64,000 nt of DNA from Candidatus Uhrbacteria bacterium RIFCSPHIGHO2_02_FULL_46_47 (GCA_001790815.1 MGDU01000001.1:2982-66981), one strand, 5' to 3'. Positions 7,789 through 15,252 are shown, counted from the stretch's first letter. Notes: generated by a model not told the origin, from the letters alone. A program made the numbers and translations.

Positions 7789-8134
7789 GTGAACTTGTTT
7801 TATTTTTTGAGAGTAACCGCATCCAAAGAAATCCAAATTTGTGCTTCAGTGTTTTTGACCGATTAGTAACGCTCGGCTCAAATCCTTACGGATCTTTCAC
7901 CTGCGCCCTATCAACCTCATAATCTCTAAGGAGTCAAATAAGACCTAATCTTGAGGACGGCTTCGCGCTTAGATGCTTTCAGCGCTTATCCGTGCCGAAC
8001 GCTGCTACTGAGCAATGCCCTTGGTAGAACAACTCATACACAGGAGGTTCGTTCTTTCCGGTCCTCTCGTACTAGGAAAGAGCCCTCTCAAGTCTTTGCG
8101 CCCGCGACAGATAGGAGACCGAACTGTCTCACGC

Positions 8135-8318
8135 ATGTATATTCATTATTTCTAATGGCATGGACTATATCTTCATCCCGATTATACATCGGGAGCCAAC
8201 GTGTAGTCTCTACGGACTCTCTGCTTTCGCAGGTTGCCTCGGTATTACCCTCTTGAACAGTTCGAAATTCAAGGAGGGCTTCACCGATACAGTTGGTGCT
8301 AGAACGGCATTACTGCCG
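8135..8318 (-). mobile_element. group I intron 1 in 23S (E. coli ~2593 region), ORF-less, boundaries approximate
   Basis: Insertion between GAACGUC and GUGAGACAG exon sequence; contains S-like GAAGAUAUAGUCC and R-like GUAGAGACUAC core elements. Confidence 0.5.
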
Positions 8319-8404
8319 CCAAACGCCATGCTCCCAGATTGGGAGGACGTTCTGAACCCAGCTCGCGTACCGCTTTAATTGGCGAACAGCCAAACCCTTG
8401 GGAC

Positions 8405-9170
8405 CTCATTTCTTGTTATCTCCGCTTACGCGGAGTACCAGACTATACCATCACCATAGTTGCAATCGTCACCGATTGAACCGTAGGTGCGAACCGTATG
8501 ATAGTGGCATAATTCATAATAATATCCAAAGCCATCTATCTCACTACGATCTTGCATCGGAGATCAGTCGTTACGGGAGCGCTTGTCTTTGATCATTGTC
8601 GCATGATTGATGCGGCGATTTTTTGATCGCACATTCAATCGCGCCAATGTATCCGCCAAACGAGCCGCCACCATCAATTCCTTAGGAGAATTGATCGTGC
8701 CACTTAGCAATCGTAATGCTTTTGTGGTTTGCTGATTCTTAATCTTGAAATAAGGTTTCAATATAGTCAACAGTTCCTTAATTTCACTTTGCTTCCGTAA
8801 AAGCCAATCATACGTAGTGCGATTTTTACGCACTAGTCCGCAATGGCATTTATTTTGCAACCAATGCAGAATTTTGGGATTGGCTTGGGTTGCTTTTAAA
8901 ACAACCCGAATACGGAAACCAAATTTTTTCTCCTTGTGCCGTTCGATCGTCGCCATTATGGCGCCGTCGGCATCAAGAAAACCAGCAATATATGCTCGCT
9001 CGACTTCAGACAATCGCTTTCCCACGGGGTTAACCTTCATACATTCAAATTATACCTGGGACCTGCGATTTACACAAGTCGATATAATTCAAATTATGAA
9101 GGCCTTCACCGTTTTGAGCTCGTTTATTACTCCGACGTTTCCGTCGGAGAGAGAAGGTTATGTTTTCTCC
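8405..9170 (-). mobile_element. group I intron 2 in 23S (~2563), carries a LAGLIDADG ORF
   Basis: Exon ...GGGGCUGGAG resumes at 9175; GGUCCCAAGGG at 8400; intervening 765 nt encodes ORF 8564..9040. Confidence 0.55.
8564..9040 (-). CDS. LAGLIDADG homing endonuclease (single motif, 158 aa), intron-encoded
   Basis: YIAGFLDADGAI motif; located inside a 23S insertion. Confidence 0.8.
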   Translation of the reverse strand: MKVNPVGKRLSEVERAYIAGFLDADGAIMATIERHKEKKFGFRIRVVLKATQANPKILHWLQNKCHCGLVRKNRTTYDWLLRKQSEIKELLTILKPYFKIKNQQTTKALRLLSGTINSPKELMVAARLADTLARLNVRSKNRRINHATMIKDKRSRND

Positions 9171-9206
9171 AGCCCCAGGATGCGATGAGCCGACATCGTA
9201 CATTAA

Positions 9207-9613
9207 TCCACGATTTCGCGTGGTGCAGACTATATCTTCATCTTGCTCCGGATCGTAGTCCCGCGGACGCGGGACATAATCTCAGTTTGATTATAGCAAG
9301 AGTCGGCGTTTTACCCGGGCGCCACTTTCTGGCGCGCCAAGTCTTCCCTTTCGGGTCAGTCGTTACGGGGTCATGAGCGCTATGCGCTAAATTACTAATT
9401 TCTAATTGTTCTAATTTCTAAATTTTAGGAATTAGGTTAATTAGGTTAATTAGATATTCACTGCTTTGCAGTGCTGACTTCCCACGGTATCGCCGGGTAG
9501 CGCGGGCGCGCTACTGACGGGTCCACCGTTATAAGCCGATTTTATTGTCTCTATCTAAACTAAATGGTTTTGACGAAAAGACTGGAAACAAATCACTTTG
9601 TATGCACCCCGAT
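9207..9613 (-). mobile_element. group I intron 3 in 23S (~2500), ORF-less
   Basis: Insertion between GAGCCGACAUCG and GGUGCCAAAC exon blocks; S-like GACUAUAUCUUC at 9228; contains AT-rich hairpin aattaggttaattaggttaattag. Confidence 0.5.
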
Positions 9614-11733: not shown

Positions 11734-11756
11734 GAAACATTGTTCACCCGACAAGG

Positions 11757-12040
11757 GATTTCGCTTATCGTGTTACTCATCCTATTAAGGATGGGCATGG
11801 TCATTTCTGCCATGCTCTGCATGTCGCCATGCAGATCGGACTCTATCTTCTCCACGTATTTGATACGGGAGTCTGGCATATAGTCTCTACGGACTCTCTC
11901 AACACTTTCGTGTTAAGGTTGCCTCGGTATTGTCTCGATGCTTATCGAGATGTTCACCGATATAGTCAGATTTTCTTCTACATCTTCGCAGGCATTGCGA
12001 AGTTCGAAGGGGGTCTTTCACCCCACTAAGGCAGCAATTC
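11757..12040 (-). mobile_element. group I intron 6 in 23S (~1917), ORF-less
   Basis: Exon ..GUCCUAAGGU (12045) joins AGCGAAAUCCC (11757); core gtagtctctacggactctct..ggttgcctcggtatt is nearly identical to intron 1. Confidence 0.45.
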
Positions 12041-12744
12041 CACCTTAGGACGATTATAGTTATCGCCGGCGTTCATCAGCGCTTCGGTTCAAAGCTGCCG
12101 CGCGCCTTGCGGCGCACATGACTTCTCTCCTTAACGTTCTGACACTGGCCAGGCATCAGCCCCTATACATTGTCTTACGACTTCGCAGGGACCTATGTTT
12201 TTGGTAAACAGTCACTTGAGAGACGCTTGTTGCAGCCCCGCTTGCGCGGGGCAGGCCTTATCCCTAAGTTACGGCCACTTTTTTGCCGAGTTCCTAAACG
12301 AGGGTTCTCTCGTTCACCTTGGCACAATTGTGCCCGGGGACCTGTGTCGGTTTACGGTACGGTTGCCAAAAGACAGGGCTTCAAAGCTTTTCTAGGCGTA
12401 CTCTTTACTCTCATCTGATCCACCTTGCGGCTTCACATTACCCTTTGCAGGGACGTGCGTATCCAAAAACACGCGGGAACTCCGAGAACGCGCACCTTGA
12501 AATGACTCTTTCGGCAGTGCAGGAATATTAACCTGCTGTCCATCGACTACGCCTTTCGGCCTCGCCTTAGGACCGACTAACCCTGGGACGATTTGCGTTG
12601 CCCAGGAAACCTTCCCCTTACGGTGTGAAGGGTTCTCACCTTCATTTGTGCTACTTATGCCAACATTCTCTCTTCTTGCCGCTCCATGGCGGCTCACGCC
12701 TACCACTTCAACGCAGCAAGAATGCTCCCCTACCGCCGACGCTC

Positions 12745-12885
12745 CGCGTCGGAATTTCTAATTTCTAATTGACCTAATTTCTAATAAAATTTCCAATGCC
12801 CAATGTTTAATTTCCAAGTTTGGTTATTAGGTATTGGTACTTTTGGATTTTATTAGGTGAATTAGGTGAATTAGGTGAATTAGAC
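12745..12885 (-). repeat. AT-rich palindromic expansion hairpin inside 23S (replaces E. coli helix ~1165-1185)
   Basis: aatttctaatttctaatt...attaggtgaattaggtgaattaggtgaattag arms are near reverse complements; no group I core; flanked by contiguous exon sequence. Confidence 0.5.
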
Positions 12886-15252
12886 ATTTCCCGATGCGAA
12901 GCATCGACTCTTGTCTTCGGTACGCCGCTTAAGCCCCGGTACATTTTCGGCGCGGCACGGCTCGACCAGTGAGCTGTTACGCTTTCTTTAAAGGGTGGCT
13001 GCTTCTAAGCCAACCTCCTGGTTGTTTGAGCCGCACCACTTCCTTTCACACTGAGCGGTCCCGATGCCCTTGCGGGATACGGGATGCCGACTTCACGTCG
13101 GCACGATTTTGGGACCTTAGACGAAGATCAGGGCTGTATCCCTTTTGAGCGATGGAGCTTAGCCCCCATGCTCTGACTCCCAAGGTACATCATACGGCAT
13201 TCGGAGTTTGATTCGATGCGACGGATTGCTCCGCCACGATCGATTCAGTGCTCTACCTCCGCAGACAATCCTTGAGGCTATACCACAGTATATTTCGGGG
13301 AGAACCAGCTATTACCCAGTTCGATTGGCATTTCACCTCTAACCACAGATCATCCCAAAGTGTTGCACAGCTTACGGGTTCGGGCCTCCATCTGTCTTTC
13401 GACAAACTTCACCCTGTCCATGGTTAGCTCACTGGGTTTCGGGTCTTGTGCACGCTGCTTGTCCGCAGATTTATCGACGCAGATAACGCTGATACAAATC
13501 AGCGAAATCAGCGCCAAAAAATCAGCGGGGTCGCCCTTTCAGACTTGGTTTCCCTGCGCCTTCGTCCCGTAGGACTTAGACTTTGCAACGCGCAACAAAC
13601 TCGTTGGCTCATTCTTCAATAGGAACACCATAACCGCTACGTAGCAGCGGAAATCCGAATTTCGAAATCCGAATGTCGAAATTTAATTCGTCATTCGTCA
13701 TTCTGGTTTCGTCATTCCCGATGCTACGCATCGGCGTTGATTCCTTGTAAGCGTATGGTTTCAGGTTTTATTTCATCGGCCTCACCGGCCTACTTTTCAC
13801 CTTTCCCTCATGGTACTTGTTCACTATCGGTGATGGAGGAGTATTTAGCCTTGGCGCATAGTCGCGCCGGTTTCCCACGGGATTTCACGTGTCCCGCGGT
13901 ACTCAAGTATAGTCATAGTAAGGCGATAACCCCTTTCGCGTACGGGACTGTCACCCTCTTTGGTTCCGCATTCCAGCGGATTCTACTAGGGAAGCTATGC
14001 TTTGTACACCCTACCTCGCCTTTCAAGGCAGCGATCATGACAAACTTACAACTTCTTCTACTTATGTAGCCCTTGAGCCTTCCGCAACGCACGTAGCGTC
14101 ACACCTTTCGATGCAACACTCGCCTCGCTACTTAAAAGTAGAAGATCTAGGCTTTTCCCCGTTCGCTCGCCACTACTAGGGGAATATCCACAAAAAATCG
14201 GGCACGAAACTCACGAAATAATTTCGTGTCTTTTCGTGTTTCAATTTTCGTGGTCTTTATTTTCTTTTCCTCTGGTTACTGAGATGTTTCACTTCACCAG
14301 GTTTACTTCGCCCACATTGCTGTGGGAGATTATGCAGTTCAACACTGCATAGGGTTGCCCCATTCGGACATCGCCGGATCAAAGCTTGCTTGCCAGCTCC
14401 CCGACGCTTATCGCAGGCTGCTACGTCCTTCATCGCCTCTCCATCCCAAGGCATCCACCATACGCCCTTGACACTGAAGCACAAATTTAGATTCTTTTGA
14501 TAATAGTTGACTAGTCGAAACTAGCAACTCGTTTTGATGCGATTACTCTCTACTAATTAAATTGTCAAAGTTCTCCAGTTCGCACCACAGATCAGATGGT
14601 CAACCTCATCTCTGAAGCGAAAATAAAAGATCCCGCGTACGCGGGACCCGTAAATTACACCGAAAAAAGACGGCTACCCGCTAGGACAAGTTAATTTCAG
14701 AACTTTTCGCATATTTAAGCTTAAAATTCAGCCTCCTTACCGTCTGTATCTTGCACCTGCTAGTATGCCATATCCCTTAAAATGTGTCAACCCCAGCCCT
14801 TCCACAGGGTATTCACAATGGGCTACAACCGCGGCGATTCCGCGCGCGACGAAGCCAGCAACGGCCACGACCCGCGCTTCGCCTAGCCGCACCTTCCCAC
14901 CTTCCACCACGCACCCGCTCTTCACACCCACCGCAAGCAACGCCATGTCTCCCCGACCTCTGGCGTTCTTCTTTTTATGCAAAAATGTAGCCGCAGGTCT
15001 TTAGCCTGCGTTCAATTGCGCCACCTAAAGAGCGGCGACTACAATTATGATGACTCCACATAAGAAAAACACCTTGGTAAGTCAACCACATCTATCCACA
15101 CCCTACATTGACAAACTATATGAATGTGGTATGCTTACAGTGGTTATCAATTCGAGGAATCACACTCCTACGAGGAGTCACTAAGCAGCCCACAAGGGCT
15201 GTTTTGCGTTAAAGCGCTATACAATATGAATCAGGAATTTTTGATTTATTAT

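Follow-up and report, generated by a model that had tools for sequence, protein, structure and literature searches.

Six predicted group I introns, unusual splice-site nucleotides and an antisense cassette in the 23S rRNA gene of a candidate phyla radiation bacterium

Can a 23S ribosomal RNA (rRNA) gene that is interrupted six times in its 3' half still provide a functional rRNA, and what are the interruptions? The question is raised by a 64,000-nucleotide stretch of DNA (the window) from Candidatus Uhrbacteria bacterium RIFCSPHIGHO2_02_FULL_46_47 (GCA_001790815.1, MGDU01000001.1:2982-66981), which carries a 23S gene followed by a 5S gene on the minus strand. A first-pass annotation made from the sequence alone had read the insertions as six group I introns, two of them with homing endonuclease genes. 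Here, the locus is interpreted, with a probability of about 0.85, as the functional 23S-5S unit of a candidate phyla radiation (CPR) bacterium in which six group I introns occupy domains IV and V, near the peptidyl-transferase centre. In the corrected map the introns target the catalytic heart of the ribosome: helices 69-71, helix 81 (a neighbour of the P-loop), the peptidyl-transferase ring at 2500, and helices 91-93.

The large subunit (LSU) rRNA model of Rfam, RF02541, matches positions 7855-14481 over model positions 1-2912 of 2925, and the 6627 nt so matched comprise seven exons with the six introns between them, plus four expansions located in the 5' half. The strand and the canonical order of the conserved blocks had been given correctly in the first-pass annotation, the exons being colinear with E. 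coli 23S. The 5S gene is separated from the 23S gene by a spacer of ~56-69 nt (the RF02541 match stops 13 positions before the 3' end of the model), and the earlier figure of 57 nt is acceptable. An Rfam scan across the entire window found no small subunit (SSU) rRNA, in agreement with the earlier statement that no 16S gene is linked. Naive prediction fragments the gene, as had been anticipated: a default Rfam scan for rRNA reports it as three LSU pieces. The exon-intron map is given below in window coordinates; ORF stands for open reading frame.

7668-7785, minus strand: 5S rRNA gene (RF00001, 81.7 bits), downstream of the 23S gene
7855-14481, minus strand: 23S rRNA gene
Ending at 12042, minus strand: exon 5' of intron 1
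11766-12041, minus strand: intron 1, 276 nt, after U1931, no ORF, ends in ...CGAUA (last base A)
11746-11765, minus strand: exon between introns 1 and 2, 20 nt, E. coli 1932-1951
11446-11745, minus strand: intron 2, 300 nt, after U1951, no ORF, last base G
11150-11445, minus strand: exon between introns 2 and 3
9860-11149, minus strand: intron 3, 1290 nt, after U~2262 in helix 81, GCCU|CCUAAAAGG, last base G
9620-9859, minus strand: exon between introns 3 and 4
9199-9619, minus strand: intron 4, 421 nt, after U2500 in the peptidyl-transferase centre, no ORF, ends in ...AAUGUA (last base A)
9166-9198, minus strand: exon between introns 4 and 5
8407-9165, minus strand: intron 5, 759 nt, in the helix 91 loop GAGA|A, after E. 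coli 2533, last base G
8347-8406, minus strand: exon between introns 5 and 6
8134-8346, minus strand: intron 6, 213 nt, after U2593, no ORF, last base G
7855-8133, minus strand: last exon, 3' of intron 6

Sites were placed by alignment to an E. coli 23S sequence that runs ~2 nt ahead of canonical numbering, and were anchored on the landmarks ψ1911/1915/1917, m7G2069, the helix 80 P-loop, m2A2503, ψ2580 and A2602. All six large insertions lie in the 3' half of the gene, at E. coli positions 1931, 1951, ~2262, 2500, 2533 and 2593. The sites proposed previously at 2500 and 2593 stand, whereas 1917, 1931 (as the second site), 2066 and 2563 give way to 1931, 1951, ~2262 and 2533; the 2058-2069 stretch, gacgaaaagaccccgtgaag, is free of insertion. 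The earlier size range of 185-1280 nt is likewise superseded by the measured lengths of 276, 300, 1290, 421, 759 and 213 nt. Once spliced, the exons align with E. coli 23S without a single indel at any of the six junctions (for example GGCACCU|CGAUGUC and CCUAAGGU|AGCGAAAU), and all of the universally conserved exon stretches are intact, in register and in canonical order.

A search with a group I model, proposed earlier as a check, gives a divided result. The Rfam model RF00028, whose gathering cut-off is 50 bits, matches all six insertions, and introns 1 (58.0 bits) and 6 (50.4 bits) pass this threshold; introns 2-5 fall below it with E values from 8e-8 to 0.71, namely intron 2 at 23.9 bits (E 0.004), intron 3 at 39.6 bits over 10541-10686, intron 4 at 21.6 bits (E 0.02) and intron 5 at 16.4 bits (E 0.71). 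Large loop insertions and ORFs depress such scores. Three core motifs quoted in the first-pass annotation were recovered: GAAGAUAUAGUCC starts at 8174 (one-mismatch copies at 11850 and 9239), GUAGAGACUAC at 8213 (one-mismatch copy at 11890) and CCCCGUAACGACUGAC at 9370 (near copies at 11610 and 8578).

In each intron, further, a 5' guide is complementary to the exons on either side (P1 and P10), R and S elements form P7, and a P9 hairpin is present. All six guides are contiguous and lie near the intron 5' end, which constitutes evidence separate from Rfam. In intron 1 the guide UUGCUGCCUUAG pairs at 12/12 positions with the junction CUAAGGU|AGCGA; in intron 2, ACUCGCCCGA pairs at 10/10 with UCGGGU|GAGU; in intron 4, AUAUCGGGGUGC pairs at 12/12 with GCACCU|CGAUGU, each with a U·G pair at -1. 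The guides of intron 3 (UUAGGGGC, 7/8 to its junction) and intron 6 (CAUGGCGUUU, 10/10 to GAACGU|CGUG) also place a U·G pair at the 5' splice site, so that this pair is present in introns 1, 2, 3, 4 and 6 and missing in intron 5. The terminal G (omega-G) is found in introns 2, 3, 5 and 6, and introns 1 and 4 end in A.

The case of intron 5, the weakest match, is strengthened by its relatives. When the I-SceI-like protein encoded in intron 3 was used to scan genomes, one per species, 80 loci were obtained (L-numbered below), mostly in metagenome-assembled genomes (MAGs) of Patescibacteria/CPR, with Uhrbacteria as the nearest named group. The guide of intron 5, ACCUUCUCU, pairs at 9/9 positions with GGAGA|AGGU when aligned by hand, and it covaries in L048, where the exon reads GAGC and the guide ACCUGCUC, a compensatory change. 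The helix 91 family comprises nine homologous same-site insertions with conserved ends, one of them a 425-nt form without an ORF, and its consensus fold has a P7 built from the R and S elements, with compensatory changes in 17 of 30 predicted pairs. We conclude that all six insertions are group I-type introns, predicted to be self-splicing; guides, R/S (P7) elements and RF00028 matches thus agree with the first-pass annotation on this point. The six insertions do not fit the description of intervening sequences (IVSs), that is, extended hairpins removed by RNase III that replace a helix tip in surface helices and have no ribozyme core: they possess both the cores and the guides of group I introns, and all but one lie at conserved functional sites.

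In the proposed pathway, each ribozyme would fold within a precursor of ~6.8 kb, and exogenous guanosine would attack at the 5' splice site, freeing the end of the exon for an attack in turn on the 3' splice site. Splicing would restore a colinear 23S rRNA of ~3.37 kb.

Several points weigh against this interpretation. The splicing of every intron is predicted from sequence, and just two of the six RF00028 matches reach the curated cut-off, intron 5 with its 16.4 bits (E 0.71) being farthest from it. A terminal G is normally required for exon ligation in group I introns; introns 1 and 4 lack it, with no compensating change in the P7 guanosine-binding elements, and at the 5' splice site of intron 5 the conserved U·G pair is absent. 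A 64-kb window, moreover, cannot show whether this 23S gene is the sole copy in the genome.

Shifting the boundaries of introns 1 and 4 to regain a terminal G would in every case leave an extra AUA or UA in universally conserved rRNA, or change conserved rRNA bases; the intron-less relatives show no such extra bases, and such shifts were rejected. At the 2500 site, ~10 introns of relatives end in A against ~18 in G, so that roughly one in three of those sampled is of the A type, and the A is fixed while the preceding bases vary; A-ending forms occur in L009, L010, L015, L017, L022, L027, L043, L048 and L076. At the 1931 site, three relatives have A-ending introns (L066, L014 and L071), two of which, in L066 and L014, share the ending CGAUA|. 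No P7 compensation for the terminal A was found at the 1931 or 2500 site, the P7 elements being alike in the A and G forms. The invariant terminal A at the 2500 site would indicate selection on that base rather than decay.

Intron 5 departs from the other rule. The helix 91 loop, GAGAA, contains no U, and therefore the intron cannot form the conserved U·G pair; its base at -1 is an A, paired to a guide U. The U·G pair is missing in all nine helix 91 introns, in which the 5' splice site (9166/9165 here) carries an A-U pair or, in L048, a C-G pair; the relatives in this family are L002, L009, L022, L035, L036, L048, L070 and L073. To our knowledge, site ~2533 does not appear in earlier intron catalogues.

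These oddities give rise to the question of whether some insertions, the A-ending introns and the helix 91 intron especially, are incompetent for ligation and are removed by cleavage alone, leaving a fragmented yet functional 23S rRNA. Attack at the 5' splice site followed by 3' hydrolysis, or host RNases, would release them, and the pieces would be held by structure as at bacterial IVSs. The unchanged P7 G-binding elements of introns 1 and 4, which lack a terminal G, and the missing U·G pair of intron 5 fit such a scheme, as do the IVS-like hairpins that this 23S gene has in helices 25 and 45, and the fragmented 23S tolerated in many bacteria (PMC4990558, PMC11270868). However, the guides of introns 1, 4 and 5 are fully complementary across the junction (12/12, 12/12 and 9/9), a feature that is needed for ligation only, and the terminal A is invariant among ~10 diverse 2500-site introns with variable neighbouring bases. 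A break at 2500/2501, inside the peptidyl-transferase centre, would presumably also be harsher than the breaks that IVSs make in surface helices, and a Coxiella intron without terminal G is reported as self-splicing in the title of reference 29 of PMC11270868. Removal by cleavage alone is on balance improbable. By analogy with Cbu.L1917 of Coxiella burnetii, we infer that introns 1 and 4, with their terminal A, and intron 5, with A-U at -1, would still splice. CPR 23S genes may host whole group I lineages that splice without the terminal G or without the U·G pair, and for ribozyme biology these exceptions are naturally replicated breaks of two textbook rules.

The relatives also bear on whether the gene is functional and whether it is correctly assembled. 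By exon mapping, introns of relatives occupy all six sites found here and others near 2449, 2504, 2585, 2604 and 2657; dozens of CPR MAGs carry homologous introns at matching sites, and intron-less alleles of relatives are canonical at all six. The best matches of two flanking proteins of the window (~43-47% identity) adjoin 23S genes of the same Patescibacteria MAGs, and the introns and endonucleases likewise find their nearest relatives in Patescibacteria MAGs; a CPR origin is well supported by these sequence comparisons. Other samples have yielded two independent assemblies, ERZ27254756 and ERZ27254836, whose contigs match the locus with 99.78% and 99.93% identity, and one of them spans all six introns. 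The few positions at which they differ from the window are in variable rRNA helices; among them is a compensatory pair, 7927/7919, which changes from A-U to G-C.

Public contigs of this population break within or near the 23S gene, rRNA regions are difficult to assemble, and it could be imagined that 23S fragments had been joined to unrelated intron-bearing reads in an assembly chimera, a possibility that the first-pass annotation had itself raised as fatal to its reading. The ERZ27254756 and ERZ27254836 contigs agree with the window, one of them being contiguous over the six introns, and the exon order is canonical with exact junctions throughout. A chimera is for these reasons extremely improbable.

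Only slightly less remote is the idea that the locus is a decaying, non-functional rRNA copy laden with mobile elements, while a clean copy elsewhere does the work. A window of only 64 kb leaves room for a second copy, and two introns have non-canonical ends. Against decay, the exons retain all of their universally conserved stretches intact, in register, the 5S gene is in its normal place after the 23S gene, and introns at matching sites have been kept across many CPR lineages; CPR genomes usually hold one 16S and one 23S copy (PMC11270868). The confinement of the strain differences to variable helices, with one compensatory pair, argues for a functional gene under selection. A functional 23S-5S unit thus remains the preferred interpretation of the locus.

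The first-pass annotation had also described the cores of introns 1 and 6 as nearly identical and had suggested that one was copied from the other within the genome. The likeness is overstated and the spread unsupported: the two share a gapped block of ~95 nt (P4'-P7), with 147 of 321 aligned columns matching, and their mutual score of 64 (against ~17 for shuffles) is well below the scores to same-site introns elsewhere, which are 150 for intron 1 with L066 and 142 for intron 6 with L009. The shared block is the conserved catalytic core of one intron subclass and gives no evidence of recent copying inside this genome. As a separate observation, L009 has insertions at both 1931 and 1951, and the 1931-site insertions of L009 and L033 are ~260-270 nt long, have no recognisable R/S elements and begin UCNCGA...GAAGGACU; they may represent a different insert class at the same site.

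Two of the introns encode LAGLIDADG proteins, as previously proposed, and for both the domain, an intact acidic motif residue and full-length similarity to characterised enzymes were found.

9848-10513, minus strand: LAGLIDADG gene in intron 3, 221 amino acids, double-motif, I-SceI family
8564-9040, minus strand: LAGLIDADG gene in intron 5, 158 amino acids, single-motif, I-CreI/I-MsoI family

The 221-residue protein matches Pfam LAGLIDADG_2 at 3.9e-47 and I-SceI in the PDB at 1e-27 over residues 3-213, is 69% identical to its L002 homologue, and shows the motifs LLGDGH and YMDDGS in translation. Its gene lies near the 3' end of intron 3 and extends 9 nt beyond the 3' splice site, so that its TAA (9848-9850) is inside the conserved exon GGUAACGG, an arrangement also seen in several relatives. 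Because the stop codon is in the exon, a full-length product with a stop codon can come only from the unspliced precursor. The 158-residue protein matches Pfam LAGLIDADG_1 at 2.8e-10 and I-CreI and I-MsoI in the PDB at 1e-13 to 1e-25, is 61% identical to its L002 homologue and has the motif FLDADGA; its gene is carried in P6 of intron 5 and overlaps the P4'/P6 and P6'/P7 core elements. The intron 3 enzyme, of the I-SceI monomer type, and the intron 5 enzyme, of the I-CreI homodimer type, would cut intron-less alleles, whose predicted target sequences are GGAUGCCU|CCUAAAAGG at the ~2262 site and CUGGAGA|AGGUCCC at the 2533 site, and repair would copy the intron. Introns 1, 2, 4 and 6 have no ORF, and in relatives the introns at these sites often measure 700-900 nt and carry endonuclease genes. 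The four short introns are best read as minimal derivatives that have probably lost their endonucleases, which would fit a late stage of the homing cycle.

Intron 3 holds, besides its endonuclease gene, a candidate second coding element. The ~2262-site introns of 25 relatives measure 308-1019 nt, all following U and all ending in G, and intron 3 is ~300-350 nt longer than those that bear an endonuclease (905-1019 nt). The extra length consists of ~60 nt with two hairpins upstream of P3 (by eye) and ~290 nt in the P6 loop, where an antisense cassette is located.

10624-10912, plus strand: antisense cassette, P6 loop of intron 3
10624-10645 and 10891-10912: closing arms, 22 bp
10644-10672, plus strand: predicted sigma-70-type promoter, TTGACT-17-TATATT, 10/12, extended -10 TG
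10680-10686, plus strand: Shine-Dalgarno sequence AAGGAGG, five bases ahead of the ATG
10692-10817, plus strand: ORF of 41 amino acids, MSQKARNTHLLYGLLIYGFFGTCLMVMFSAIARGCYSMYFR, one predicted hydrophobic membrane helix with charged ends
10840-10870, plus strand: predicted terminator, 14 bp and a T-run

The cassette is identical in both other assemblies of the population. Two mismatches in the closing arms become G·U pairs in the intron sense only, which points to an RNA stem and not a terminal inverted repeat, and this stem dominates the intron-sense fold (z = -5.7). A transposon or miniature inverted-repeat element was also considered and rejected: no second copy occurs in the window or the 80 loci, and no target-site duplication is visible by eye. 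Searches for relatives of the 41-residue peptide returned self-matches only (a word-indexed search, HMMER over 1.84 billion representative proteins, and tblastn on the 80 loci), and no match was found in Pfam, NCBIfam, PADLOC or PHROGs, toxin families included. No similar cassette was found among 129 other CPR introns, and the introns of the relatives do not carry it.

The cassette might be a working gene for a small, membrane-active peptide like a type I toxin, silenced by heavy rRNA transcription and the intron RNA together, which we consider doubtful. Its mRNA would be fully complementary to the pre-rRNA intron, and the peptide would appear only when rRNA synthesis collapses; if this were true, the cassette would couple a dormancy or killing function, or intron addiction, to ribosome production. 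As in type I toxin-antitoxin systems, there is a small hydrophobic peptide with a single predicted membrane helix and charged ends, with its own predicted promoter, a strong ribosome-binding site, a terminator and a fully complementary RNA from the opposite strand. In contrast to them, the antitoxin would be the pre-rRNA intron itself, and the arrangement is conserved in no other genome. The peptide falls in no described type I toxin family, and the likeness, as far as the sequence goes, is one of layout only. We know of no other bacterial rRNA intron with an independently transcribed gene on the opposite strand; the cassette would be the first, if expressed.

The 5' half of the 23S gene contains four hairpin-type expansions that are absent from the first-pass annotation.

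14262-14184, minus strand: expansion hairpin, +66 nt relative to E. coli
14147-13987, minus strand: expansion hairpin, +137 nt
13745-13445, minus strand: expansion hairpin in the helix 25 region, +161 nt
12917-12750, minus strand: expansion hairpin in the helix 45 region, +154 nt

Each folds as a long hairpin, none of the four has a group I match, and all fit the description of an IVS as an extended hairpin with no ribozyme core; helices 25 and 45 are classic IVS sites (PMC11270868). The arms of the helix 45 hairpin are of low complexity (CUAAUU/AAUUAG), and a similar AAUUAG-rich hairpin lies within intron 4 at ~9452-9385.

Upstream of the 23S gene, a promoter-like sequence, TTGACA-17-CATACT with TG, occurs at 14762-14790 on the minus strand, ~280 nt from the 23S 5' end, and a terminator-like hairpin at 14628-14649 (minus strand) lies between the two. 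Farther upstream, a tsaD-like gene (15253-16578, minus strand) has three in-frame insertions, at 16350-16279, 16131-16036 and 15840-15745. They are GC-rich palindromes of the CCCTCTCCC...GGGAGAGGG type that translate to PSPxxGEG-like stretches, and they look like a small repeated hairpin element tolerated within the coding region. The 12-mer TAGTATGTAGTA has 6 copies in the window, both strands counted.

How does this locus compare with known systems? Among 348 CPR 23S genes surveyed, 82% have insertions, and a single gene can have as many as 16 (Tsurumaki et al. 2024, PMC11270868); in this survey rRNA genes are single-copy, group I introns cluster in the 3' region of 23S, LAGLIDADG genes dominate the ORFs, and about half of the insertions are recognised by Rfam as group I in character. 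Brown et al. 2015, as cited there, had already dealt with insertion sequences and group I introns of CPR rRNA genes. The present gene resembles the surveyed ones (PMC11270868) in its multiple 3' insertions, its LAGLIDADG_1 and LAGLIDADG_2 ORFs and its IVS-like inserts in helices 25/45. The first-pass annotation had called multiple introns with LAGLIDADG ORFs together with an unlinked 16S gene a CPR hallmark; the intron pattern is indeed documented (PMC11270868), whereas an unlinked 16S gene is frequent among Patescibacteria, as it is in numerous further clades (bioRxiv 10.1101/705046), and is compatible with CPR without being diagnostic. Unlike the present locus, the main text of the survey (PMC11270868) describes no terminal A, no missing U·G pair and no antisense intron genes. 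Recurrent sites in the survey include 1931, 1952 and 2593, with further sites not known from other bacteria; its sites 23IS9-11 may correspond to ~2262, 2500 and 2533. A cleavage assay of an intron-less target was done there for I-ShaI.

Before CPR sampling, bacterial LSU introns were known at L1917, L1931, L1951 and L2593 (PMC1995217), and a literature search by the site names L2262, L2500 and L2533 returned nothing relevant. The LSU genes of Synechococcus sp. C9 and S. lividus (Haugen et al. 2007, PMC1995217) share with the present gene introns at L1931 and L2593 and single-motif LAGLIDADG genes, but they have at most three introns, all endonuclease-bearing, whereas four of the six here are without an endonuclease. 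The sites at ~2262, 2500 and 2533, not known in bacteria before CPR sampling, also set the present gene apart from the Synechococcus set (PMC1995217).

Both endonucleases are related to enzymes that are themselves encoded in LSU group I introns: I-SceI in the omega intron of yeast mitochondrial 21S rRNA, and I-CreI and I-MsoI in chloroplast 23S introns at L2593. The insertion sites of the known enzymes are L2449 for I-SceI and L2593 for I-CreI, and they differ from those of the relatives described here (~2262 and 2533).

The 23S gene of Coxiella burnetii is said to contain two introns, named Cbu.L1917 and Cbu.L1951, reportedly described by Raghavan et al. in 2007. According to a title (reference 29 of PMC11270868) and to PMC4990558, the group I introns of this bacterium are spliced, one of them without a terminal G. 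As far as these sources go, the likeness extends to two introns that flank a tiny exon (34 nt in Coxiella, 20 nt here), one of them without terminal G, to an IVS in helix 45 of the same 23S gene and to the shared L1951 site. On the same sources, Coxiella differs in having two introns against six here, and its non-G end is at 1917 as against 1931 and 2500; the host here, moreover, is a CPR bacterium.

The multi-intron CPR 23S gene is a known kind of locus, of which this is one further example, and it matters mainly for annotation, as predictors split the gene and gene callers put protein ORFs inside it. The novelty of this main feature is low, and that of the junction oddities and the cassette is moderate.

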